Below are positions 3,359 through 53,374 of a stretch of 53,374 nucleotides of DNA, one piece after another. Numbering within the stretch: the stretch's first letter is position 1; every line of letters starts with the position of its first letter. A program made the translations under genes and the position numbers. The notes beneath the pieces are model-generated. The model was not told where the DNA came from. It was given only the letters and a program-made list of their open reading frames with translations, and searched no databases. Source of the stretch: a virus (taxonomy: Duplodnaviria > Caudoviricetes); the IMG/VR virus record IMGVR_UViG_3300044807_000061, positions 1-53,374 of that record. One strand, given 5' to 3'.

Positions 3359-3819
3359 GCCTGCCCGTCCTGCCCGTCTACAAGGCCGTTGCTGCGCTCA
3401 TCGGCGCGGCGACCGAGAAGCCTGTCGGCATGGCGAAGCTCCCGAAGGTCCTCGTCGACGGGAAGCCGACCGAGAAGGCCGACGTCCCGTGCACGGTGCT
3501 GTACGTCGAGAACCCCGTGACGAGCGGCCCGGGATGGGGCGATGCGGACGCCGACGCGGAGATGCGGTTCCGCGCCCGCGCGGTCGGTGGCACCGCCGAT
3601 CAGGTCGAGTGGCTCGTCGACAGGATCCGCGGTGCCTGGCTCGACAAGGACCCCGACGACGTCAAGCAGTTCCGCGTCGACCTGGCCATCGACGGGATGA
3701 GCGTGATGAACCGCGAGGTCAAGAGCGAGAGCCCCGTCGAGCCGGAGAGCGACCGGGTGTTCAGCCGCAGCATCGTCCTGTGCGCCTACGTCACGCCCGC
3801 GGACGCCCCCGCCCCCTGA
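3355..3819 (+). CDS. Putative tail terminator
   Basis: 154 aa, between the gp10-like gene and major tail gene. Confidence 0.6.
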   Translation: MSLPVLPVYKAVAALIGAATEKPVGMAKLPKVLVDGKPTEKADVPCTVLYVENPVTSGPGWGDADADAEMRFRARAVGGTADQVEWLVDRIRGAWLDKDPDDVKQFRVDLAIDGMSVMNREVKSESPVEPESDRVFSRSIVLCAYVTPADAPAP

Positions 3820-3847
3820 CGTCCGAGCGGCTGTCCGGTCTGCGCCG

Positions 3848-3872
3848 TACCGTGTCCCGCGACACGAAGGAC
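3848..3872 (+). promoter_or_regulatory. -10 (TACCGT) directly followed by GTCC-N11-GGAC
   Basis: taccgt-gtcc-cgcgacacgaa-ggac, then RBS aggagg and ATG 3892. Confidence 0.65.
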
Positions 3873-3891
3873 ACCTGAGCAGGAGGACCTC

Positions 3892-4182
3892 ATGACGACC
3901 ACACCGACCGAGTCGACGACGCCGGTCAACTTCATGCGCCTGGGCGAGGGGCCGATCGCGCCCGTCACCGACGAGGCGTTCCGGCAGGTCTGGGAGCCCC
4001 GCGGCTACTCGGCTGTCAGCGACGCGGACGCGGAGGCTGCCGCGAACGCACCCGACCAGCCCAAGACCGAAGCCGCTGCTGCGGAGGCCCCCGCACCGCC
4101 GGCCGCATCCCCGGCAGCGCCTGGCCGGCCCGGCGGCGGCACCCCCGGCGGCACACCCGGAGGTCAGCCGCCGACCCCCTGA
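3892..4182 (+). CDS. Small Pro/Ala-rich hypothetical protein
   Basis: Strong RBS; 96 aa. Confidence 0.7.
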   Translation: MTTTPTESTTPVNFMRLGEGPIAPVTDEAFRQVWEPRGYSAVSDADAEAAANAPDQPKTEAAAAEAPAPPAASPAAPGRPGGGTPGGTPGGQPPTP

Positions 4183-4197
4183 CCACACAACACCGAT

Positions 4198-4239
4198 GAG
4201 CGGCCCCGGCACGGGAGACCCCCACTGCCGGGGCCGCTC
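4198..4239 (+). terminator. GC-rich stem-loop (terminator or processing hairpin)
   Basis: 14-bp stem gagcggccccggca / tgccggggccgctc; no U-tract. Confidence 0.55.
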
Positions 4240-4296
4240 CACGTCCACGGCACGCCGAGCAGCCACACCTACCCCCCGGAACGTCGGCCCCCGTCG

Positions 4297-4328
4297 TACG
4301 CTGTCCCTCGTCCCGCAGCACACGGGAC
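4297..4328 (+). promoter_or_regulatory. -10 (TACGCT) plus GTCC-N11-GGAC upstream of major tail gene
   Basis: gtcc-cgcagcacacg-ggac at 4310-4328. Confidence 0.6.
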
Positions 4329-4426
4329 GCTGACGAGACAGCAACCTCTCGGCGACGCGGGTCCGTGACCCAGCGTGGGAAGCCCTCCACACCATCGCGG
4401 CGGTGCCGCAGAGGAGACATCCCATG
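4329..4426 (+). ncRNA. Putative structured 5' leader (copy 1) of the major tail gene
   Basis: Shares a GCTG/CAGC hairpin, a GGCG-[4 bp + bulged A + 5 bp + 3-nt loop]-GGGA block and TCCCATG with 48907-48991. Confidence 0.6.
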
Positions 4427-4900
4427 GCCGACGAGAGGTACATCAACCGGGGCGTCAGCCTCGCCTACTTCCTCCCCACCATCTCTGGCGCTGCCGCGAC
4501 CCGCGCGGAGATCGCCGCCGGCGTCGTCCTGCACGACCGGATGGCCGACATCAGCGGCTTCATGATCGAGGGCGCCGAGGCTGAGGCCAGCGACTGGAGC
4601 AGCGACTTCGACAAGAAGGCCAAGGGCACCCGCGCGCTCGCCGACAGCTCGCTGACCTTCCACGCGAAGAAGACCGGCACCGACGCCGTCCGCGTCGCAC
4701 TTCCTGAGGCGGCCCTCGGGTACGTCGTCATCATGAACGCCGGGGACATCCCGACCACGGGGAAGATGAACCAGTTCCCCGTCCAGGTCCGGTCGGTCGG
4801 TGACGTCTACTCCTTCGGGTCGGACACGGCGAAGTTCCGCGTCCAGTTCTCCCCGACGGACGTGCCGACCATCGGCGCGACCATCCCGGCCTCGAGCTGA
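4424..4900 (+). CDS. Major tail (tube) protein
   Basis: RBS gaggag; F.PTI...ATRAEI.AG...ISGF pattern of actinophage tail tubes; upstream of chaperone and tape measure. Confidence 0.8.
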   Translation: MADERYINRGVSLAYFLPTISGAAATRAEIAAGVVLHDRMADISGFMIEGAEAEASDWSSDFDKKAKGTRALADSSLTFHAKKTGTDAVRVALPEAALGYVVIMNAGDIPTTGKMNQFPVQVRSVGDVYSFGSDTAKFRVQFSPTDVPTIGATIPASS

Positions 4901-4904
4901 CCGG

Positions 4905-5471
4905 GTGACCGCCGAGACTGTGAGCGGCGGGCCTCCTCCCGCCGCGGTGGCATCCGACGCCCACTGGGCGGCGAAGATGGAGCGGCTCCGCAACCGCAAG
5001 CCTCCGGAGCGGACGCTGCTGGTCCGGCTCGACGACAGCGCGGTGGAGGCGGCGCGGAAGGCCCGCAGCGACCTCCACACCGCGCAGGTCCGGGCCAACG
5101 CCGCCGAAGAGGGCGACACCGGCCCGGCACTGGCCCTCGAGCAGGCCGAGCAGCGCCTCAGGGACGCGGAGACGGCATTGGCCGCCGCGACCGTCGAGCT
5201 GACGTTCCGCGGGATGCCCCGCGACGCCTACGAGCAGCTCATCGCCGAGTGCCCCCCGGGCGAGGATCAGGCCGCCGAGGGGCAGACGTACGACCCGGAG
5301 CTGTTCGCCCCGGCCCTCGTCAGCGCCTGCTCGGTCGATGCGATGCCGGTCGAGGATGCCCGGGAGCTCCTGACGTCCCTGTCGCAGCTGGAGGCGGGGG
5401 TGCTGTTCGAGACGTGCATCGGTCTGAACGAGACCGCCCGGATGGACTACGGGAGCCTGGGAAACGGATAG
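4905..5471 (+). CDS. Tail assembly chaperone (gpG-like); start approximate
   Basis: Between tail tube and tape measure; ends just after slippery site G GGA AAC. Confidence 0.8.
   Translation: MTAETVSGGPPPAAVASDAHWAAKMERLRNRKPPERTLLVRLDDSAVEAARKARSDLHTAQVRANAAEEGDTGPALALEQAEQRLRDAETALAAATVELTFRGMPRDAYEQLIAECPPGEDQAAEGQTYDPELFAPALVSACSVDAMPVEDARELLTSLSQLEAGVLFETCIGLNETARMDYGSLGNG
5459..5465 (+). other. -1 programmed frameshift slippery site GGGAAAC
   Basis: X XXY YYZ phase in the chaperone frame; -1 frame open to 5833. Confidence 0.85.
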
Positions 5472-18240: not shown

Positions 18241-19677
18241 TCAGAGCCACTCAAGCTGCACGCGATCGCGCATCTCTTGGCCGCGCTCCCCCGCGCAGAG
18301 GTAGACGGCTCGGAGGTAGGTCTTCAGGACTCGGTTCTGCTCCTCCGACTCCCAGTGTGGCCAGCCTGCCTCGATCCGCTTGGCGATGGTCACCGTGATC
18401 GTCACGGGCGCCATCGTCGACTCCTCGGCGTACGCGAGGTCGGCCAGGAGCCGCGACCGCTGCTCCTCGAGCTCGGCCGCCGCGTCCGCGTACGCGTGCT
18501 CCGTGAGCCGCTCGTTCGCCAGCGCCATCGTCAGGGTGCGCAGCGACCGCTCCACCTTCGCGAGCTGCTTGCGGATCTCCTGCTCCTGCGTCCGGATCGA
18601 GGCCTGCGCGATGCGCCGCTGTTCACGGGCATCCTTGTCATCACGGAGCCGCTTCGCGGTGGCGATGATGTCCTCGATGACCGCACGGTGGACGTCCAGC
18701 TCGTTGGGTGCGCCGATGCCAGCGCAGCTGCCGAGGTCCTGTCCCTGGCAGACCAGCGCGACCCGACGCTGCCCATCCCGCGTCCGACCGGGTTTCCGCT
18801 GAAGGATCAGCCCGCAGCCGGGCCGGCCGCAGCGGATCAGCCCCGCGAGCGGGTGGGCTGCCTGCACCGTCCGGGAAGGTGGCGACGGCCGCCCGAGCCG
18901 CTTCTGCACCCGCTCGAACAGGCGCACGTCAACAAGAGGCTCATGCTCACCGTCGTACACCTCGTCGCGGAGCCGGACCTTCCCGATGTACGCAGGGTTC
19001 CGGAGGACCTCCCGCACCGTCGTCGGCCGCGTCGTGACCCCGAGCAGCGGCGCGACGTCCCGGGCGATCTGCGCACATGACCAGCCGCTGTCGTACAGCT
19101 CGAAGATCCGGCGCACGACCGGCGCGGTCGCCGGATCGAGCTCGACTGCTCGCGGCGGGACACGGACGTACCCGAGCGGGACCTTCCCGTGGAAGTAGCC
19201 CATCCGCGCGATGTGCGTGGCCGTGTCAGCCCACTGCCTCCCCATCTGGTCGCTGTACAGCTGCGCCATGGAAAGGAACTGGGTGAGCATGAACTGCCCC
19301 TCGGGGCTGTCGTCGATCTGCTCGACGGTGCTCACGATGCTGATCCCGAGGTCTCGGAGCTCCTTGATGAACCGGAGGCTCTCGGCCGTGTTCCGGCCCA
19401 GCCGGCTCAGGTTGTAGACCGCGACGACGTCGACGTCCCCGGCCCGCGCGAGCGCACGGAGCTGCTCGATGCCGCTGCGGCTGAACGTTCTGCCGCTGAC
19501 GTCGATGTCCTGCACGACGTGCGTCTCCCGGAGCCCCTGCCGGCGCGCGTGGTCCCGCATCGCCTTCAGCTGCAGGTCGGGGCTGTGCAGGTCCTCGCGG
19601 CCCATGACGGCGCTGACCCGCACGTACAGGGCGGTGCGCTTCCCGGGGTTGGGGACGGCGGCGAGGCGGCGGCTCAT
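18241..19677 (-). CDS. int: Large serine recombinase (integrase)
   Basis: YVRVS (catalytic Ser), DIDVSG, LSRLGRN, PLGY, LRNPAYIG, GEHEPLV, zinc-ribbon Cys residues and coiled coil. Confidence 0.95.
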   Translation of the reverse strand: MSRRLAAVPNPGKRTALYVRVSAVMGREDLHSPDLQLKAMRDHARRQGLRETHVVQDIDVSGRTFSRSGIEQLRALARAGDVDVVAVYNLSRLGRNTAESLRFIKELRDLGISIVSTVEQIDDSPEGQFMLTQFLSMAQLYSDQMGRQWADTATHIARMGYFHGKVPLGYVRVPPRAVELDPATAPVVRRIFELYDSGWSCAQIARDVAPLLGVTTRPTTVREVLRNPAYIGKVRLRDEVYDGEHEPLVDVRLFERVQKRLGRPSPPSRTVQAAHPLAGLIRCGRPGCGLILQRKPGRTRDGQRRVALVCQGQDLGSCAGIGAPNELDVHRAVIEDIIATAKRLRDDKDAREQRRIAQASIRTQEQEIRKQLAKVERSLRTLTMALANERLTEHAYADAAAELEEQRSRLLADLAYAEESTMAPVTITVTIAKRIEAGWPHWESEEQNRVLKTYLRAVYLCAGERGQEMRDRVQLEWL

Positions 19678-19979
19678 CCGAGTCGCTTGACGCTCCGTGC
19701 GCGCTGCCGGATCTCTTGGAGGCGACGGAGCCTCTTGACGAGCATCGGGTCGTGCACGAGCGCGGCGGGCTGGTCGATGATCACGCGGAGGAGTTGGTAG
19801 TAGCGGGTGGCGGAGAGGTCGAAGGTGTCCTTGATGGCTTGCTCCTTCGCCCCCGCGTACTTCCACCAGCGGCGCTCGAACGCGAGGATCTGCCGGTCCC
19901 TGTCCGTGAGCTGGTCCGGTGCCTCATCTGAGGTCGGATTTCGGCAGGTCGCCTCGGCTCCGCCGGGCATGTCGGTCAC
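19674..19979 (-). CDS. DUF3263-family protein (similar to mycobacterial Rv0430/NapA)
   Basis: ILAFERRWWKYAGAKEQAIKDTFDLSATRYYQLL...DPMLVKRLRRL. Confidence 0.9.
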   Translation of the reverse strand: MTDMPGGAEATCRNPTSDEAPDQLTDRDRQILAFERRWWKYAGAKEQAIKDTFDLSATRYYQLLRVIIDQPAALVHDPMLVKRLRRLQEIRQRARSVKRLG

Positions 19980-25780: not shown

Positions 25781-26844
25781 CCACCGTCGAAGACACACCC
25801 CGCGCCGCGCCACCGCCGCTCAGCACCCTGCCCAAGCTCCTGTCGACCCGCGGCGCCTACGACCCCCAGAACGACGACAACGACGGCCGCTGGTACACCG
25901 ACCCCGACACCGACCAGCTCCTCGCCTCCGTCACCACAGTCCTCGGAGCCACAAGCAGCAAGCCGTGGCTCGCGAACTGGGCCGCGAAGCTCGCCGCCGA
26001 GTTCGCCGTCGAGCAGCACGCGCTCGTCACCGACACGATCGCCGCCGCCGGCCCCGCCGCCGCGATCGACCTCATCAAAGGCGCATCGAAGCGCAAGCGG
26101 GAAGAGGCCAGAGACCGCGGCACCTGGGTCCACGACGTCGTCGAGTGCCTCGCCCTCGACACGACCATGCCGGACTTCCCCGACGACGTCGCGCCCTACG
26201 CCGACGCGTTCATCGACTGGTTCTGCGAGTGGGAACCGACCTTCGTCGCGTCCGAGTGCACCGTCGCCGACCCCGCCCGCGGCTGGGCCGGGACCCTCGA
26301 CCTGCTCCTGCACTTCCCCCGCTGGCCGCACCTCGGCCGGTGGCTCATCGACGCCAAGAGCGGCGCGAACCTCGACCACACCATGCCCATCCAGCTGGGC
26401 ACCTATCAGCGGGCGCGGGAACTGTGGCTCCCGTTCGGGCGGAAGGTCCCGATGCCGCAGACCGACAGGTGCGGCGTCCTCCACATCCGCCCTGAGGGCG
26501 TCAAGCTCATCGACGTCACCGAGTACGCGACCGACGTCGCGTACGAGCAGTTCCTCAAGATGCGGTCGGTCCTCGACTTCCGCGAGAGCCTTCCCAAGCA
26601 CATCGGCCGGGTCCTGTACCCGCCGCTGCCCGATGGCAGCCAGCCCCCGCCGATGCTCGAAGACCTCCCCGGCGCCCAGTGCGTCGCGATCCTCAAGGCC
26701 GCCGGGATCATCCGCCTCGACGACCTCGCCGCCTGCACCCGCGCCCGTCTCCTCGCCCTCAAGGGCATCGGCGACAAGAAGGCCGACGCGCTCGAGGAGT
26801 TCCTCGCGCAGCACGGCCGCAGCCTCAGGTCGGTGGCGGCATGA
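25777..26844 (+). CDS. PD-(D/E)XK exonuclease with C-terminal RNAP alpha-CTD/HhH-like domain
   Basis: SVTTVL, RGTWVH, AGTLD, IDAKS, QLGTY; C-terminal LKAAGI..LDDL......LLALKGIG.K. Confidence 0.85.
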   Translation: MTTVEDTPRAAPPPLSTLPKLLSTRGAYDPQNDDNDGRWYTDPDTDQLLASVTTVLGATSSKPWLANWAAKLAAEFAVEQHALVTDTIAAAGPAAAIDLIKGASKRKREEARDRGTWVHDVVECLALDTTMPDFPDDVAPYADAFIDWFCEWEPTFVASECTVADPARGWAGTLDLLLHFPRWPHLGRWLIDAKSGANLDHTMPIQLGTYQRARELWLPFGRKVPMPQTDRCGVLHIRPEGVKLIDVTEYATDVAYEQFLKMRSVLDFRESLPKHIGRVLYPPLPDGSQPPPMLEDLPGAQCVAILKAAGIIRLDDLAACTRARLLALKGIGDKKADALEEFLAQHGRSLRSVAA

Positions 26845-27851
26845 CACTCCTCGATCGGCAGCGGCAGGGCGTCCGGCTCGGTGCCATCCGCATCGGGATC
26901 AAGGTCGTCAAGGACGGCAAGACCCGCCCGCAGAAGCTCAACACCTTCCGCCTCACGTCACCGGACCGGGTGAAGGTCGAGGCCGCCGCGCAGGTCTACG
27001 GCGGCGAAGTCCAGGCGTGGAAGCCGAACGACAACGCCGGGCAGCAGTGGGAAGTCGTCACGACCGTCGACCGGATGGACGTCCGGATCCCGCCCGGTGA
27101 CCCGGTCGCGCAGGACTACGAGCTGTGGACCACGACCCGGCAGCGGCTCTGCGACGGCGTGACCGAACGCATGAAGGGCCGCGCGTGCCAGTGCCCCCGC
27201 GACCTGATGGAGCGGAAGGAAGCCGCGAAGAGCGGCGACGCCTGCAAGCCGATCACGCGCCTGAACCTGATCCTCGCGGACCTCCCCGGCCTCGGGGTGT
27301 GGCAGCTGTCGTCGACCGGCGACGCCGCCGCGGACGAGCTCGCCAGCACCGCCGAGTTCCTGCAGCGCGCCGGGGCGGGTGGCGTGATGCTCCCGGCCGT
27401 CCTGCGGCTCGAGCAGCGCGAGTCCCGCGGCTCCGGTGAGCTCCGCCGCTTCGCCGTCCCTGTCCTGGACGTGGCAGCGTCGATGCTGCAGCTGGAGACC
27501 GGCCAGTTCACGCCCGCCGGCCTGATCGGCAACGGCGGACCGAACCCTGGGCAGCGGGCTCTGCCGGCCGGGTCGGCACCGGATCCCACTGTTCCGAAGC
27601 AGATCGACGCTCAGGCGGCTCCTGTGGAGGAGCGGACGGTCGCTCCGCTGCCGCTCCCCGATGACCTGACGCCGCAGAAGCTCGCCAACCTGGCCAGGAC
27701 CGCGACGCACAAGGATCAGGTCCGTGACTTGAAGCTCCACGCCCGCACCGTCGGGTGGCTGGAGGAGTTCGTCGACGACGCGCAGGGCGTGAGCGAGCCC
27801 CTCGACAACGCGCTGTTCACCGAGTTCGAGCGGCTCGGCGGTACGGCCTGA
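26841..27851 (+). CDS. phiC31 gp3-like protein (recombination directionality factor-like family)
   Basis: LGAIRIG...PQKL.TFRLTS...RLCDG...CKPITRL...PGLGVW...FAVPVL. Confidence 0.75.
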   Translation: MTLLDRQRQGVRLGAIRIGIKVVKDGKTRPQKLNTFRLTSPDRVKVEAAAQVYGGEVQAWKPNDNAGQQWEVVTTVDRMDVRIPPGDPVAQDYELWTTTRQRLCDGVTERMKGRACQCPRDLMERKEAAKSGDACKPITRLNLILADLPGLGVWQLSSTGDAAADELASTAEFLQRAGAGGVMLPAVLRLEQRESRGSGELRRFAVPVLDVAASMLQLETGQFTPAGLIGNGGPNPGQRALPAGSAPDPTVPKQIDAQAAPVEERTVAPLPLPDDLTPQKLANLARTATHKDQVRDLKLHARTVGWLEEFVDDAQGVSEPLDNALFTEFERLGGTA

Positions 27852-28120
27852 TGCAGACGGTCGACCACTCCCCCCTGCGCAAGAACGCCCTCGCCACGTA
27901 CCGCGCCGGACGGCTGCAGCTCATCGAGGTCGTGAGCGGCTGGGACCTGATCCCGGTCAAGGTGACGGCCCGGGTCGAGAGCAGCCGCGACGGCGGCGGG
28001 ACGTACGCGGTCGACCTGATCGACGGCGTGTGGCGCTGCACGTGCCGGGTCGGGCAGCGCGGTGAGCCGTGCGCGCACGTCCACTCGGTGCAGCTGTGCA
28101 CGACTGGAGTGCCGGCGTGA
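27851..28120 (+). CDS. SWIM zinc-finger protein
   Basis: YAV......WRCTC.......CAHV. Confidence 0.75.
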   Translation: MQTVDHSPLRKNALATYRAGRLQLIEVVSGWDLIPVKVTARVESSRDGGGTYAVDLIDGVWRCTCRVGQRGEPCAHVHSVQLCTTGVPA

Positions 28121-28722
28121 CCGCTCTCACGCTTCCGGGTGTCATCGACCCTCGCCCGGAGGACCGGGCCGCTGAGGTGGGAAGTGGGGAACTTCCCGCC
28201 CCAGCGGCCCGGGTCATCGGAGTCGACCTGTCCTTGACAGGTACCGGGATGGCCGACGGCGAGAACACCTGGCTCGTCACCAGCAAGGGCACCGACAAGG
28301 ACAGCCTCGCGCAACGCTGGATGCGACTGGGCCGGCTCGCCCGCGACATCTGCGGCCGCATCCCCACCGACGTGACGCTCGTCCTCATCGAGGGCCCGTC
28401 GTTCGGCAGCCGCGACGGGCACGCGCACGACCGCAGCGGCCTGTGGTGGCTCGTCGTGAGCGCCCTCCACAAGGCTGGCATCCCTGTGGCTGAGGTCGCG
28501 CCGTCGTCCCTGAAGCTCTACGCCACCGGCAAGGGCAACGCGAAGAAGGAACTCGTCGTCGACGCGACAGCCCGCCGCTATCCCGACGTCGTCACGGGGG
28601 CCGACTCGAATCGCTGTGACGCGCACTGGCTTGCCGCCATGGGACTAGCGCACCTGACAGGCCGGCACGTCGTCCCGACAGCGCACCAGCAGGCCATGGT
28701 CAAGGTCCGGTGGCCAGCATGA
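28117..28722 (+). CDS. RuvC-like Holliday junction resolvase
   Basis: VIGVDLSLTGTG, LIEG, KLYATGKGNAKKE, NRCDA. Confidence 0.88.
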   Translation: MTALTLPGVIDPRPEDRAAEVGSGELPAPAARVIGVDLSLTGTGMADGENTWLVTSKGTDKDSLAQRWMRLGRLARDICGRIPTDVTLVLIEGPSFGSRDGHAHDRSGLWWLVVSALHKAGIPVAEVAPSSLKLYATGKGNAKKELVVDATARRYPDVVTGADSNRCDAHWLAAMGLAHLTGRHVVPTAHQQAMVKVRWPA

Positions 28723-48036: not shown

Positions 48037-48822
48037 ATGCTGAAGCGCCCCGTCCTCGCCCAGGCCCTACCCGCGCCGCTGCTCGTCAACGGCCTCACCA
48101 TCGGCGAACTCCTCGCGTCGAAGCGTGAGCAGTTCGGCGGCGCCCGGATGGGACCCGACGACGACAAGACGTTCACGCAGGACGACGTGAACCGGCTGAC
48201 CGCGGAGGCCCGTGACCGCGGGAAGCGAGAGGCCGCCACCGGCGCATCCGAGGAGGCGAAGCGGGAGGCGCACCGCGACTTCCTCAAGGCCGCCGGTCTG
48301 CCCGAGGACACCAAGCCTGAGGACGTCGGGAAGGCGCTGAAGGCCGCCCGCGACAAGGAGCTCGAGCAGCTCGGCGAGGTCGAGCGTGCGAAGCGGGAGG
48401 CCGACGATGCGAAGGCTGAGCTGCAGCGGGAACGGGACTCGGCGGCGCAGCGCGAGACGGAGCGGGCGGCGGAGCAGTTCGAGGAGCGCCTCACGAACCT
48501 GATCGAGAAGGCCGGTGCCGGCGCCCAGCATGAGCAGGACGCCGACAAGAAGGCGAAGGAGGTCGCGCGGGTCCGGAAGCTGCTGTCGGTGGATGTGAAG
48601 GTCGGCGCTGACAGCGACGCGATCCGCAAGGCCATCGACGAGGTGAAGGTGGAGTACCCGGAGCTGTTCCCGACCGGCGACGGCGAGGGCGGTGGGCTGC
48701 CGGATGGGCGGCCAGGCAGCGGTCCGGGCACGCAGCGGCAGGCGCCGAAGAGCAAGGTCGCGGAGGGCAAGGCCAAGGCCATCGCGATCGGCTGGACGAA
48801 ACCCGACGCGCAGGCCTCCTAG
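48037..48822 (+). CDS. Scaffolding protein
   Basis: KTFTQDDVNR, charged coiled coil, YPELF; -10 TACGCT 6 nt before ATG; alternative start 48148. Confidence 0.85.
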   Translation: MLKRPVLAQALPAPLLVNGLTIGELLASKREQFGGARMGPDDDKTFTQDDVNRLTAEARDRGKREAATGASEEAKREAHRDFLKAAGLPEDTKPEDVGKALKAARDKELEQLGEVERAKREADDAKAELQRERDSAAQRETERAAEQFEERLTNLIEKAGAGAQHEQDADKKAKEVARVRKLLSVDVKVGADSDAIRKAIDEVKVEYPELFPTGDGEGGGLPDGRPGSGPGTQRQAPKSKVAEGKAKAIAIGWTKPDAQAS

Positions 48823-48842
48823 CCGCGCTCGACACGCCGAGC

Positions 48843-48869
48843 GTCCTCTGTCCTGCTGCACGCTGCACA
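48843..48869 (+). promoter_or_regulatory. Variant late element (GTCC-N11-GCAC, -10 CACGCT)
   Basis: 24/27 identical to the reverse complement of 15084-15110. Confidence 0.55.
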
Positions 48870-48906
48870 CAGGTGTGCGTAACCTGTGGAACCAACAGCG
48901 ACTGCG

Positions 48907-48991
48907 GCTGAGACAGCAGGCGACGGCAGGAACCTTCTGACCGTGGGACCACCGAGCAGCACCGGACCCCCACGACAGGACGGATCCCATG
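48907..48991 (+). ncRNA. Putative structured 5' leader (copy 2) of the decoration/capsid genes
   Basis: Same geometry as 4329-4426 with compensatory changes. Confidence 0.6.
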
Positions 48992-49687
48992 GACCTCTCC
49001 CCGCAGAGCACGACCGTCACGACCCTCGAGAACCGTGACTGGCTCGGCTCGGCCCACGGCACCGAGTCGACGGACACCATCACCCTCGACCTCGCCCTGT
49101 TCACCGAGGCGGTCCACTACCCCAACGGGGAGATCCTCTCCGGGACGGTGCTCGCGAAGAAGACCAGCTCCGGTCTGTACGGCCCGTACTCCGGGACGAC
49201 GGAGGAGGTCCAGACCATCACCGAGGGCGGCTCCGGCCTCACCTCCTACGTCCTGCACTTCGACGGTCAGGACACCGCCGCCATCGCCGCTGCCGCGACG
49301 GCCGCGCAGGTCCGGACGGCCCTCGAGGCGCTGAGCAACATCGCGCCGGGCGACGTCACGGTCACCGGCTCAGCGAGCGGCCCCTACACGGTGACGTTCG
49401 GCGGCCAGTACCTCAACACCAACGTGCCCGCCATGACGGCGACCCCGACCGGCGGGTCCGGGACGGTCACCATCGCGACCTTCACCGCCGGTGGCGCCGA
49501 GGGCAGCAGCGACGGGCTGCAGGTCGCCAAGGGGCACCTGTTCAGCGTCATCCAGGTCCGGAACCCCGCCGGAAAGGCCGGTGCGGCGCTGCTGCGCCAC
49601 GGCAAGGTCCGGGTCGCGAAGCTGCCGCCGAACAGCGGCTACGACCCGGCGGTCAACGCCGACGTCCCCAACATCATCTACATCTGA
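48989..49687 (+). CDS. Head decoration protein with inserted domain
   Basis: WLGSAHG...GTVLAK...GLYGPY...DG.....GHL...LRHG; about 100-aa insert starting EVQTIT. Confidence 0.75.
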   Translation: MDLSPQSTTVTTLENRDWLGSAHGTESTDTITLDLALFTEAVHYPNGEILSGTVLAKKTSSGLYGPYSGTTEEVQTITEGGSGLTSYVLHFDGQDTAAIAAAATAAQVRTALEALSNIAPGDVTVTGSASGPYTVTFGGQYLNTNVPAMTATPTGGSGTVTIATFTAGGAEGSSDGLQVAKGHLFSVIQVRNPAGKAGAALLRHGKVRVAKLPPNSGYDPAVNADVPNIIYI

Positions 49688-49699
49688 GAGGCCTGACTC

Positions 49700-50725
49700 A
49701 TGCTGGTTACCGACCTCACAGACCTGGCGATCCTCACGGGGGCTGTCCGGGAGATCGACCCGCCGGTCGACTACACGCTCAACGGGCTGCTGCCCGACGA
49801 CACCATCAACGACGTCGAGTACAGCACCCGGAAGAGCACCGTCAGCCGCGGCGAGGCCGAGTTCCGCGCGTACGACGCGGAGACGCCGATCGGGCGCCGC
49901 CGCGCGACCGTCACGACCGGCCGGCAGCTGCTCCCGCCGCTGGGGACCAAGTTCCTCATCGGCGAGTCCGAGCGGCTCGCGCTGCAGCGCGCCCAGGGCA
50001 TGAACACGCAGGCCCTCGAGAACAGCATCTACGACGACGCGAAGTCCGGTGTCATCGGGATCCGCCGCCGCATGGAGCGGGCCCGCGCGCAGGTCCTCTA
50101 CACGGGGAAGTTCACCCTCGTCGACGAGAACGAGCTCACCCTCGAGGCCGACTTCCTGGTCGACCCCGACAACCTCGACGTCGAGCCGGCCACGCCGCTG
50201 TCCGACCCGGACCTCGACCTGTACGGCTTCTTCGAGACGCTGATCGAGCAGTACCGCGACAGCAACATCGGTGGGCAGGCCCCAGGCCGCTTCACGACGT
50301 CGCGCCGCGCGGTCAACGCGATGCGCGCGAACAAGCAGGTCATCCGGAGCATCTTCGGGCCCCTCGCGACCGAGGGGAACGTGACGGTCTCGCAGCTGTC
50401 GCAGGCGTTCGTCGACAACGACTTCCCGCCGATCAGCCAGTACAACACGCGGGTCGACGGGGAGTACCTCATCCCGACCGACCGGATGATCATCACCCCG
50501 ACGGACCCGCGGGACCTGGGCCGGACGGTGTGGGGCATCACCGCGGAGTCGCTCGAGCTCGTCGGGTCCAACGCGGTCGACATGACGCTCGCCGACGCTC
50601 CCGGGATCGTGGCGGTCACCCTGAAGGAGGGTGACCCGGTGCGGATCTGGACGAAGAGCGCCGCGGTCGGCATGCCGGCGCTCGACGACCCGACCCTGCT
50701 CATGACGGCGAAGCTGTTCGGCTGA
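49700..50725 (+). CDS. Major capsid protein (lambda gpE-like family)
   Basis: AEFRAYDAETPIG...LPPLG.K...R.E.AR.QVL.TGK...DPV.IWT...GMP. Confidence 0.92.
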   Translation: MLVTDLTDLAILTGAVREIDPPVDYTLNGLLPDDTINDVEYSTRKSTVSRGEAEFRAYDAETPIGRRRATVTTGRQLLPPLGTKFLIGESERLALQRAQGMNTQALENSIYDDAKSGVIGIRRRMERARAQVLYTGKFTLVDENELTLEADFLVDPDNLDVEPATPLSDPDLDLYGFFETLIEQYRDSNIGGQAPGRFTTSRRAVNAMRANKQVIRSIFGPLATEGNVTVSQLSQAFVDNDFPPISQYNTRVDGEYLIPTDRMIITPTDPRDLGRTVWGITAESLELVGSNAVDMTLADAPGIVAVTLKEGDPVRIWTKSAAVGMPALDDPTLLMTAKLFG

Positions 50726-51129
50726 TGCGGACGGCAGCGCGGTCGTTCGTCCTGAGCGACCCGGAGACGTTCGAGTCCCGCTTTGTGAAGCGGGGCGCGG
50801 AGGTCACGGACGCGCAGGCCGAGCGGGTGAGTCCGCATCTGCTGGTGCCGCTGGAGACCGTCCAGGCGCCGGCTACCCCTGCTGCTGCTCCGCCGGTCGA
50901 GCAGGAGAAGCTCGACGAGGCGGAGCGGCAGAAGCAGCTCGCGGAGGCTGACGCGGCGGAGGCGCAGCGACTCGCGAAGGTTCTCGAGGGCAAGGTCGAC
51001 GCGGTCAACGACCACATCACCGAGCACCCGGAGGACCGGGACGCGCTGCTCGCGTTGGAGGCGCAGGCGGAGAAGCCCCGCAGCGGGATCACGGAGGGGC
51101 CGCACGCGGCTCCGCCGGTCGAGCAGTAG
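50725..51129 (+). CDS. Capsid-associated hypothetical protein
   Basis: Coupled to capsid gene; AAPPVEQ occurs twice. Confidence 0.65.
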   Translation: MRTAARSFVLSDPETFESRFVKRGAEVTDAQAERVSPHLLVPLETVQAPATPAAAPPVEQEKLDEAERQKQLAEADAAEAQRLAKVLEGKVDAVNDHITEHPEDRDALLALEAQAEKPRSGITEGPHAAPPVEQ

Positions 51130-51140
51130 GACCAAGGGCG

Positions 51141-51175
51141 CGGCGGCCCGACCAGGGAGCCTGGTCGGGTCGCTG
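51141..51175 (+). terminator. Stem-loop after the capsid operon
   Basis: cggcggcccgaccagg-gag-cctggtcgggtcgctg. Confidence 0.6.
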
Positions 51176-51193
51176 TCATGAGAGGGGCTGGGC

Positions 51194-52072
51194 ATGAGCA
51201 CGACGTTCCGACTGGCTGAGCTGGCCAACGTGCCCGCCGGTCGTTACCGGCTCGACACCGCCGCCGGGTCGACGACGCCGGCGGCGGATCTGTCGCTGAC
51301 GGAGCCGCTGCTGCGGGTGAAGCGGGGCCATCAGCCGGGGCCGGTCCGGTCTTCGACGGGCCGGACGGTGTTGTACGGGAAGCGGCTGGGGGTCCTTGGC
51401 CAGGTGCTCGCGACGGTGACGTTGTCGGCGGACGCGACCATGGCGGAGCCGACGCCGGTGGGTCAGGCGGCGCTGGACGCGGCGGTGAGCACGGCGGTGG
51501 CGGGGTTGGTGAACGGGGCGCCGGGGGCGCTGAACACGCTGGAGGAGCTCGCTGACGCCCTCGGGGATGACGCGAACTATGCGGCGACCGTCGCGGCGGC
51601 GTTGGCGGCGCGGCTCACGACGGTGAGCCACGGCAGCACGGCAGGGACGGCCCGGCCGGCGTCGGCGCTGCCGGTGCTGTGGATCGGGACGGTCGCGCCG
51701 ACGAGCGCGACGGCACGGGACCTGTGGCTGGATGAGACGACGCCGGCGCTGCAGCGCACGGACGGGTCCACCTGGACTGCGCTGGGAGCGGGCACCTCTG
51801 TTGCGTCAACCGTGGTCGCCAAGACAGCCGCCTACGCCGCCGTCAACGGAGATGTCGTCCTGGCCGATGCCAGCGGCGGCGACTTCCCGGTGACGCTGCC
51901 AGTGCCCACGTCTGGCGGGAAGGTGACGGTGAAGAACGTCGGCGCATCCGGCACGGTCACCGTCGCGCCACACGCGGCCGAGAGCGTTGAGGGCACCAGC
52001 AGCTACGCCATCGCCACACAGCACCTGTCCCGCGATTTCCTGTCCGACGGCACCGACTGGTGGGTGGTCTGA
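51194..52072 (+). CDS. Fibre-like virion protein
   Basis: LVNGAPGALNTLEELADALGDDANYAATV fibre-shaft motif; C-terminal KTAAY...DVVLADA.GG.F.VTLP...SDGTDWW. Confidence 0.7.
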   Translation: MSTTFRLAELANVPAGRYRLDTAAGSTTPAADLSLTEPLLRVKRGHQPGPVRSSTGRTVLYGKRLGVLGQVLATVTLSADATMAEPTPVGQAALDAAVSTAVAGLVNGAPGALNTLEELADALGDDANYAATVAAALAARLTTVSHGSTAGTARPASALPVLWIGTVAPTSATARDLWLDETTPALQRTDGSTWTALGAGTSVASTVVAKTAAYAAVNGDVVLADASGGDFPVTLPVPTSGGKVTVKNVGASGTVTVAPHAAESVEGTSSYAIATQHLSRDFLSDGTDWWVV

Positions 52073-52073
52073 G

Positions 52074-52781
52074 ATGTCCTACAGCCCGAACGGCGCGACC
52101 GACATCCGCCTCCCCGACCACTCGTTCGACTACCCCGGCGGCCCTGGATGGCTGATGAGCTGGGAGGTCGAGTGGTCCGGCGGGCGACTGAACATGCCGC
52201 ACAGCCTGCTCGGCCTCCGCACGCTAGAGATGGAGATCAAGCTGCGCGCGGGCGTGATCGACTCCGTGAGCGCCCACGAGGGCGCAGCCGCGACCGTCAT
52301 CGACATCGGACACGCAGCCAACGGCGTCTGGAACGACCAGGCCGGGGACTCCGGGAACGCCAACGGTTCGGTCGTGACGGCAGGTCACTACTCGCTGGTG
52401 GTCTACCTGCCCGGCGAGACCGAGCGGGCTCTGCTTTCCCCTGTACTGCCGGACGGGATGCTGTTCGCGCCGCCAGACTCAGCTGGCGGTTCCCAGCTCG
52501 CATGGATCACCGACAACGGGTCGCGTCGAGCTCTCGCCGCCGGCAGTGAAGAAGGCTCCGCGGTGACGCTCACCGATGCGGCGGCGCTCGCGGGCAGCGG
52601 CAACGGGATCTACTGGCAAGTCGGGGCCGTCGACGGCGACAACACCCAGGGCTTTGTCGTCACTAGCGGCGACAACGGGGCGCACGGCTTGGAATTTCGG
52701 GGCGACGGGGTGCTCAAGATCGACGGCGTGGATGTCCTCGCGGCGATCAGGGCGCGGCTCGACGCCCTTGAGACGCCCTGA
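52074..52781 (+). CDS. Hypothetical protein, possibly fibre-associated
   Basis: Beta-rich; ends in a short coiled coil (AIRARLDALE). Confidence 0.55.
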   Translation: MSYSPNGATDIRLPDHSFDYPGGPGWLMSWEVEWSGGRLNMPHSLLGLRTLEMEIKLRAGVIDSVSAHEGAAATVIDIGHAANGVWNDQAGDSGNANGSVVTAGHYSLVVYLPGETERALLSPVLPDGMLFAPPDSAGGSQLAWITDNGSRRALAAGSEEGSAVTLTDAAALAGSGNGIYWQVGAVDGDNTQGFVVTSGDNGAHGLEFRGDGVLKIDGVDVLAAIRARLDALETP

Positions 52782-52862: not shown

Positions 52863-52958
52863 TACGGTCCCCAGCGTCTCCCAAAACGGAGACGGCCCCG
52901 CCAGGTGGTTGCACACCTGACGGGACCTAAGGACACCACCCACATGGAGGTGGCGGCC
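52863..52958 (+). promoter_or_regulatory. -10 TACGGT and three-hairpin leader of the tyrosine recombinase; includes left inverted repeat 52866-52879
   Basis: cgtctcc/ggagacg; cccgccaggtg-gttgca-cacctgacggg; ccacc/ggtgg overlapping the GGAGG RBS. Confidence 0.55.
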
Positions 52959-53374
52959 ATGCCGTCATACGCTACTGCCCTGCTCCCCGCCGGTCTCGTC
53001 GCCGGGGACATCCCCAACCTGCGACCCGAAGACCAAGCCATCGCCGGCTTCTTCAGCCGCATCCGAAACGAGAAGACCGCCCGGCTCTACAAGCACGACC
53101 TCAAGGTCTACCTCAGCTGGTGCGCCGAGCAGAACGTCGACATCCTCAACGTCCACCCCGTGCAGGTCGAGCTGTACCTCCGCTGGCTCCAGCAGTCCGA
53201 CCTCGCCGAGTCGACCATCAGCCGCAGGTTCGGCGTCGTCGCCACCTTCTACCGCCGCGCCGTCCGGGACCGGCTCATCACCTGGGACCCGACAGCCGAC
53301 ATCGAACGCCCCGAGGTCGACTACGAGAAGCAGCACCGGACCTGGCTCAGCCCACTCGAGCTCGCCCGGTTCCT
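52959..53374 (+). CDS. Tyrosine recombinase, 5' part (continues at window start)
   Basis: RBS ggagg; T...Y..DL..Y..WC...STI.RR...V..FY core-binding-domain pattern; absent from the ORF track because it has no stop in the window. Confidence 0.92.
   Translation, partial: MPSYATALLPAGLVAGDIPNLRPEDQAIAGFFSRIRNEKTARLYKHDLKVYLSWCAEQNVDILNVHPVQVELYLRWLQQSDLAESTISRRFGVVATFYRRAVRDRLITWDPTADIERPEVDYEKQHRTWLSPLELARF
53177..53374 (+). repeat. Terminal direct repeat, right copy
   Basis: Matches 1-198 with 4 mismatches. Confidence 0.97.

Follow-up and report, generated by a model that had tools for sequence, protein, structure and literature searches.

Tailed phages need hundreds of capsid, decoration, and tail-tube subunits and few copies of the neighboring gene products, often from one late transcript. 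The means by which actinophages set these virion protein ratios are, to our knowledge, largely unknown. The locus described here raises the question of whether two partly identical intergenic regions of a soil actinophage, one ahead of the tail-tube gene and one ahead of the head decoration gene, may constitute such a means, and in what manner they might act. The sequence analyzed (hereafter the window, i.e. the whole stretch of 53,374 bp, 70% GC) is an IMG/VR virus record.

The + strand of the window encodes terminase, portal, a scaffold-like gene, head decoration (phrog_3583), and the lambda-E-type major capsid protein (PF03864), and also neck genes, the tail tube (PF25595), and tape measure. 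Gaps of 166 nt and 241 nt precede the decoration and tail-tube genes, respectively. The record is classed as linear. Its last 198 nt (53177–53374) match its first 198 nt (1–198) with a score of 190 of 198, and a tyrosine-integrase ORF (phrog_1; + strand, 52905–53374 into 1–718) is stop-free across the record ends; from these two features the genome is probably near-complete, with a circular or terminally redundant form, and its completeness probably exceeds the estimate of 74%. On the circular map ~9 kb separate the two leaders. The tyrosine integrase lies within the structural module, between head and neck genes, an odd spot for an integrase. Two ORFs (51194–52781) separate the capsid cassette from it, the first of which has tail/tail-fiber PHROG matches over residues ~80–150 only and may represent a domain that is collagen-like or a repeat. 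The window further encodes a serine-type integrase with Resolvase and Recombinase domains (18241–19866, −) and a recombination directionality factor resembling Gp3 (26679–27851, +); with a tyrosine and a serine integrase, the phage therefore carries two integration systems. The coordinates of the leader features and of the genes they precede are collected in Table 1.

Table 1. Features of the two leaders, their cassettes, and the flanking hairpins in the window
Feature	Position	Strand	Remarks
GC-rich hairpin, 14-bp perfect arms	4198–4239	+	−38.4 kcal/mol; after ORF 3892–4182, just ahead of the tail-tube leader
Block A CACGCCGAGC, tail leader	4251–4260	+	Copy at 48833–48842
First hairpin of the tail-tube leader (CGCUGAcGAG...CUCUCGGCG)	4328–4354	+	Abuts the second hairpin directly
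Block B GAGACAGCA	4335–4343	+	Within the first hairpin of the tail-tube leader
Core, tail-tube leader	4351–4380	+	GGCG, hairpin 4355–4376 (4+5 bp, loop CGU, bulged A4372), GGGA
SD GAGGAG and block E ATCCCATGG (4419–4427)	4410–4427	+	ATG at 4424; UCCC complementary to core GGGA
Tail-tube protein gene, 158 aa	4424–4900	+	PF25595 Phage_TTP_16, E 2.8e-18
8-bp GC hairpin	4924–4945	+	24 nt past the tail-tube stop codon
Block A copy, decoration leader	48833–48842	+	In a small hairpin right behind the scaffold-like gene's stop codon
GCTGAGACAGC mini-hairpin	48907–48918	+	Decoration leader
Block B GAGACAGCA, decoration copy	48910–48918	+	Just 5′ of the core
Core, decoration leader	48919–48948	+	GGCG, hairpin 48923–48944 (loop ACC, bulged A48940, one G-U), GGGA
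Block E ATCCCATGG, decoration leader	48984–48992	+	ATG at 48989
Cassette behind the decoration leader	48989–51129	+	Decoration, capsid, 134-aa ORF
Head decoration gene	48989–49687	+	phrog_3583
Lambda-E-type major capsid gene	49700–50725	+	PF03864
134-aa ORF after the capsid gene	50725–51129	+	
17-bp GC hairpin	51140–51176	+	−34.9 kcal/mol; closes the decoration-capsid cassette

The center of the shared sequence, GGCGACG-N16-CGTGGGA, has exactly two zero-mismatch matches in the window, 4351–4380 and 48919–48948, located 43 nt (tail tube) and 40 nt (head decoration) ahead of the start codon. When up to three mismatches are allowed there are 38 window matches, versus 32 by chance, and the 36 others carry at least two mismatches. 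A sequence-only reading of the window had drawn attention to these 30-nt cores, and their coordinates, sequences, and hairpin are all present as it described. Both copies have the same 9-bp hairpin with a 3-nt loop and a 3′ bulged A. The stems were also correctly described as changing between the copies yet still pairing: 18/18 cells pair across the two copies, 5/9 pairs being changed on both sides and 4/9 invariant, and the stems differ at 10/12 variable positions with pairing kept, between perfectly conserved flanks. In controls, sliding the pairing left at most 39% of cells paired, 17/500 column shuffles matched or exceeded the observed values, and of 20000 random 16-mers inserted between the fixed flanks, 30 formed the complete set of six inner pairs with this geometry. 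With n = 2, “covariation” here denotes compensatory differences between two paralogous copies. The covariance model built from both copies, as the earlier reading had recommended, scores them at 42.9 and 40.8 bits and recovers nothing else in the window (next match 17.8). Since one of the decoration-copy pairs is G-U, only the sense strand can form the whole hairpin. The z-scores of the folds, −0.5 to −2.1, are weak and ordinary for GC-rich RNA. The analysis confirms that the element is real and not a product of chance, and that it is a sense-strand hairpin with structure-preserving changes.

The similarity of the two intergenic regions extends beyond the core. Five collinear exact blocks, 41 nt in total, join them; this chain score of 41 was matched or exceeded by 0/2000 dinucleotide shuffles and by 3/19689 random pairs of window segments. 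Block A is weak alone, with three exact copies of CACGCCGAGC in the window. The GCTG..AGACAGC stretch that had been noted ahead of each core is present at 4329–4342 and 48907–48917, its two window occurrences, and its 4-bp GCTG/CAGC stem is weak taken alone. Both genes do begin in a common block, as had been claimed: ATCCCATGG occurs twice in the window, each time spanning one of the two start codons. The core hairpin, a weaker 9-bp stem without a U-run inside the leader, differs from the gene-end hairpins at 4198–4239, 4924–4945, and 51140–51176, the first of which looks like a terminator or 3′ stabilizer, though without a U-run. The strongest local hairpin on the + strand (28165–28214, −43.9 kcal/mol) is at the start of ORF 28069–28722.

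Comparison with known elements gave no assignment. Rfam 15 has no matches in the whole window, with chance-level scores only (E ≥ 0.85) for 4150–4500, in agreement with the earlier reading, which did not recognize a known RNA family in it; likewise, no Rfam matches were found in nine ZL12-like loci (see below). The core hairpin is followed by GGGAAGCCC or GGGACCACC in the two copies, i.e. by no U-run, so it does not qualify as an intrinsic terminator, and a search for U-tract terminators found no terminator-like sites within 3700–4600 and 48500–49200. A literature search on phage leaders and pZL12 returned no description of such leaders in the portions of the sources covered. We therefore present a new candidate leader element, absent from Rfam and from the literature searched, for which a mechanism is offered as a proposal.

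A tblastn search of plasmids identified 34 Streptomyces/Kitasatospora phage-plasmids (~85–150 kb) that are related to phage ZL12 and whose tail-tube proteins share 32–40% identity with that of the window. Leaders were compared at 11 loci, comprising ZL12 and 10 of the 34 plasmids. At 11/11 loci, long gaps in the head-to-tail region are confined to the sites ahead of the decoration gene, behind the small post-capsid gene, and on either side of the tail-tube gene. The decoration leaders all (11/11) contain GGGA-CCACG-(9–23 nt)-CGTGG-ACG, and the tail-tube leaders all (11/11) contain CGCA-CCGCG-(9–11 nt in the copy used)-CGCGG-AC. Their common form is a first hairpin (P1), CCRCG-loop-CGYGG, then AC, then a second hairpin (P2). 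The five P1 pairs are formed in 95/95 cells, the middle one being A-U throughout the decoration leaders and G-C throughout the tail-tube leaders. P2 follows directly after AC in 20/22 leaders, with 14 distinct stem sequences (shuffles, 1046/4400); in the remaining 2/22 leaders P2 has an internal mismatch. P1, AC, and P2 are all in the minimum-energy structure of the four modules tested. The family modules consist of two adjacent hairpins ~45–75 nt ahead of the start codon. Post-cassette hairpins, located with a crude finder, are present in 22/22 family gaps and are strong (−20 to −41 kcal/mol) in roughly 7/11 after each cassette, the others being weaker (−12 to −19 kcal/mol). These data extend the window observation to a new, family-level pattern, with leaders at the same two genes in 11/11 ZL12-like loci; this layout and placement, like the repeat and its pairing in the window, are directly observed.

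Several further features of the family loci were noted. The tail-tube leader of a Kitasatospora plasmid (L180 7296–7376) has two tandem CCGCG-loop-CGCGG-ACGC boxes, the upstream one with an 8-nt loop. Some family genomes have TTTCGCGA(A)AGGGGC in common between decoration and tail leaders, and in family tail-tube leaders (e.g. L002 8950–9000 and L187 7440–7494) the SD-like AAGGGGCC occurs twice with GGCCCC between, giving a decoy/anti-SD/SD order before the start. The annotated GTG start of ZL12 gene pZL12.64c (L002 3130) falls inside the 3′ arm of the leader hairpin, ~66 nt before that of related plasmids, and has probably been set too early. In CP075614 (L185 740–2416) scaffold and decoration are annotated as one ORF.

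The window resembles the ZL12-like family in several respects. Its long leaders precede the same two genes, decoration and tail tube; GGCG-AC is present in both of its copies, with a variable hairpin at once after, where the family has CGYGG-AC, such that the core hairpin occupies the place of the family P2. In the tail copy the first hairpin (4328–4354) abuts the core hairpin, as P1 precedes P2 in the family, and 86% of the ensemble has this two-abutting-hairpin fold; for the decoration copy, predicted folds leave the first hairpin ambiguous. The post-cassette hairpins of the window (51140–51176 and 4924–4945) are strong, as in most family loci, and another (4198–4239) stands before the tail leader. 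Unlike the family's CCRCG-loop-CGYGG-AC, the window box is GAGACAGCA...GGCG-AC, with CGUGGGA added after the hairpin. All window regex matches to the family P1 motif fall outside both leaders, so the link between window and family is architectural only. Local alignments between window and family leaders are not significant (26–529 of 1000 shuffles match or exceed the same-type scores), and two matches picked out by eye, CCACACCA-TCGCGG and AGCAGCACCG, were dropped after failing the shuffle test. The best reading of these comparisons is that the window element is a lineage-specific variant of the family leader design; homology of the window leaders to the family leaders is plausible. Both leaders of a genome carry identical boxes, and the window boxes are not those of the family, a pattern that suggests a common reader that may co-evolve with them. 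Because the boxes are lineage-specific, a putative binding protein for the element is plausible.

The leader design was sought beyond the ZL12-like group. In blastn searches of INPHARED phages the tail leader has no match and the decoration leader matches only ZL12 coding sequence, and IMG/VR, scanned with the tail-tube protein and with the capsid protein singly, yielded no relatives. The tail-tube protein does have close relatives (93, 86, and 82% identity) on short JGI/Logan contigs (P0002–P0004, the 93% relative being JGI P0002). More distant ones are one Mycobacterium MAG locus from a scan of genome contigs (41% identity, without the motif), 45 loci from a metagenome scan with the tail-tube alignment (30–42% identity; the P0002 contig is not among them), and 5 of 401 sampled Actinomycetes genomes (33–37% identity only; the tally takes in the unpublished genome G024). 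The two-copy covariance model, applied to 47 loci (ZL12, the Mycobacterium MAG, and the 45 metagenome loci), gave a best score of 18.1 bits (E 0.57). No paired leader was found in 17 distant loci of at least 5 kb, where the best chains score at most 31 versus 41 in the window; the inspected metagenome loci mostly have the tail-tube gene close behind its neighbor. Pattern searches of IMG/VR returned no matches to blocks B+C+D, three chance-like matches to C+D+start, and at least 120 matches to the core pattern in at least 119 stretches, where none of those listed has a 6/6 hairpin and three have 5/6. Contigs from a second soil metagenome run (X2) cover 4245–4392 with 12 differences and one insertion (4332), i.e. 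~92% identity, a divergence about that of the flanking genes. Over 4245–5000, including the leader and the tail-tube gene, identity is ~91–95%, with a 6-nt insertion just past the start codon; no contig of this run extends over ~4171–4244.

Taken together, these observations lead us to propose, tentatively and with somewhat less than even confidence, that a cis-acting two-hairpin RNA leader module sets the expression of the two high-copy virion cassettes, through stability or translation. The 30-nt cores would be the second hairpin of a ~55-nt two-hairpin module in the 5′ leaders of the decoration-capsid and tail-tube cassettes. The hairpin would work by shape, its stems and loops being free to vary provided that pairing is maintained, and the invariant flanks (GAGACAGCA, GGCG-AC, CGUGGGA, and AUCCC-AUG) would work by sequence, read by one common factor that could be either phage encoded or a host machine. 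The module may mark or protect the mRNA segments for capsid and tail tube at their 5′ boundary, with the strong 3′ hairpins ending them, while GGGA:UCCC pairing beside the AUG would fix the folding context of the ribosome-binding site. The outcome would be that both cassettes are more abundant than other late genes. Action as RNA, reading by a common factor, and an effect on stability or translation are what we infer from the repeat with its compensating stems, the collinear blocks, the G-U pair that restricts the complete hairpin to the sense strand, the two-hairpin fold of the tail copy, the consensus fold with GGGA:UCCC, the negative scans of both leaders for sigma-70-type promoters and U-tract terminators, the family layout, the boxes that differ by lineage, and the post-cassette hairpins. 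Counting against it are the presence of only two copies in the window, non-significant homology to the family, a predicted probability of at most 0.02 for the decoration hairpin, unremarkable z-scores, and distant relatives without the leader.

The mechanism initially advanced for the cores was a two-state translational switch, in which CGUGGGA either closes the hairpin or hides the start codon through UCCCAUG, and a phage protein on the bulged-A hairpin possibly toggles between the two. Predicted folding makes this unlikely, although part of its basis is sound. The conserved blocks are indeed complementary over 7–8 nt, and RNAalifold on both leaders independently recovers the hairpin together with a GGGA:UCCC helix. 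At equilibrium in the tail copy, GGGA:UCCC has a probability of 0.95 and the hairpin 0.5–1.0; the two coexist and would stack, contrary to the proposed competition. In the decoration copy both are at most 0.02 (GGGA:UCCC 0.01); CCCACG and the SD are the predicted partners of block D and the hairpin 3′ arm there, and enforcing the hairpin costs 5.1 kcal/mol. In favor of a switch, the 5′ arm of this hairpin, CAGGA, duplicates the SD, and the minimum-energy fold allows the real SD to pair with the 3′ arm. The cost of opening the SD-AUG region (8.0 and 7.1 kcal/mol) is mid-range among 33 other gene starts (3.4–18.8 kcal/mol), and there is therefore no sign of special sequestration of the ribosome-binding site. 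A further pairing proposed to cover the tail-tube ribosome-binding site, CCUCUCGGC:GCCGCAGAGG, is absent from the minimum-energy folds, where CCUCUCGG pairs with coding sequence. In addition, the hairpin is 40–43 nt away from the AUG, and ZL12-like leaders, by inspection, have no consistent complement to the start codon. Thus, the complementarity and the consensus GGGA:UCCC helix survive from the switch proposal; competition with the hairpin and sequestration of the ribosome-binding site find no support in the predicted folds.

The hairpins that follow both cassettes and that stand ahead of the tail leader are strong and terminator-like, and the layout of two similar copies, each with two putative adjacent stem-loops over ~55–70 nt, would be that described for HK022 putL/putR (PMC9378689). 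Both features would suit an antitermination RNA, in which the nascent leader, alone or with a phage factor, modifies RNA polymerase to allow read-through of the post-cassette hairpins; the order of a linear conserved box followed by a variable-stem hairpin, which resembles boxA plus boxB, would also fit. Against such a role, both copies lie within the late structural region, their loops are not conserved as boxB loops are, the record has no Q-type antiterminator domain (PF06530), and the downstream hairpins have no U-runs, making them putative terminators only. We consider antitermination improbable. It is equally doubtful that the twin leaders would constitute the first actinophage put/nut-style RNA device in a late operon, a family across Streptomyces phage-plasmids with lineage-specific boxes; in that case the nascent two-hairpin RNA, read by RNA polymerase or a co-evolving phage factor, would govern the amount of transcription that gets past the strong hairpins around the two cassettes.

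An action at the DNA level also appears to us to have a low probability. Here the boxes would form a late promoter or activator site for an activator or sigma factor specific to the phage, and the hairpin would simply be the transcript 5′ end or spacer DNA. The tail leader follows the strong hairpin at 4198–4239, and high tail-tube expression may thus need a new start; moreover, boxes that are the same within a genome and different between lineages are as expected for co-evolving promoter-factor pairs, and GCGACG-N16-CGTG loosely recalls what we take to be ECF-type −35/−10 spacing. However, the spacer is fully complementary in both copies, which the random insertions reproduce only rarely and which a promoter does not need. 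The inverted arms in the family are 8–23 bp apart, and P1 loops of such variable length (8–23 nt) fit an RNA hairpin better than a dimeric DNA site. A scan of both leaders for sigma-70-type promoters found none. With respect to candidate factors, the Sigma70_r2 domain is absent from the record, which has only weak region-4-like HTH matches below the cut-off; no Ogr/Delta domain was found in it, and Pfam scans of 30 non-structural ORFs gave generic HTH matches only.

That the leaders have no dedicated function, being relics of gene conversion or duplication with hairpins incidental to 70% GC, is very unlikely: GC-rich leaders do fold well anyway, as the weak z-scores reflect, and neither block A nor the 4-bp GCTG/CAGC stem is strong by itself, but perfect flanks surround stems that have diverged while still pairing, and the same layout with many compensatory stems recurs at the same two genes of all the related phage-plasmid loci.

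The RNA leader module that we favor would have several consequences. A putative leader located at exactly two high-copy cassettes, and kept by compensatory change, would offer a concrete, mutable handle on virion protein ratios. It represents a candidate new class of cis-regulatory RNA in Streptomyces phage-plasmids, which are amenable to laboratory growth and induction. Should the reader of the leader be a phage factor, this factor and its box could provide an orthogonal expression switch for Streptomyces.

In MS2-type operators the hairpin holds the start codon or ribosome-binding site, and its loop and bulge are conserved for binding of the coat protein. The loose resemblance to this operator suggested from sequence inspection fails on both counts, as the window hairpins have their ends 47 and 44 nt 5′ of the AUG, and their loops differ (CGU versus ACC). 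The lambda nut sites consist of a conserved linear boxA followed by a boxB hairpin, in two copies per genome, with conserved boxB loops that are read by N. The window likewise has a conserved linear box then a short hairpin, in two copies; unlike in nut, the loops are CGU in one copy and ACC in the other, and PF06530 is absent from the record. This difference in the loops is evidence against a loop reader of either the boxB or the MS2 type.

The start-associated sequence (SAS; extended form, ESAS) of Cluster K mycobacteriophages reportedly sits a few base pairs 5′ of the start codon. It is a 13-bp motif, GGGATAGGAGCCC, present in 11–19 copies at non-structural genes only, and in SAS/ESAS imperfect inverted repeats with a variable spacer lie upstream, the consensus varies by subcluster, and a role in translation is suspected (PMC3203893). 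The window element is similar to SAS/ESAS in being an actinophage repeat tied to gene starts, and dissimilar in that it has just two copies, which are found 40–43 nt ahead of structural genes. The window holds no match to GGGATAGGAGCCC with fewer than three mismatches, and 15 with three mismatches versus 21.7 expected.

The putL and putR sites of the lambdoid coliphage HK022 are two similar copies per genome of a cis-acting antitermination RNA of ~70 nt with two stem-loops, situated just downstream of the early promoters and followed by terminators that are suppressed through RNA polymerase (PMC9378689). The window copies differ from put in belonging to an actinophage and to its late structural region, and are likened to it by description only. 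As to stem-loops, the tail copy is predicted to fold as two abutting hairpins, and the first stem of the decoration copy is ambiguous. In common with put, the window carries two similar copies per genome with terminator-like hairpins downstream.
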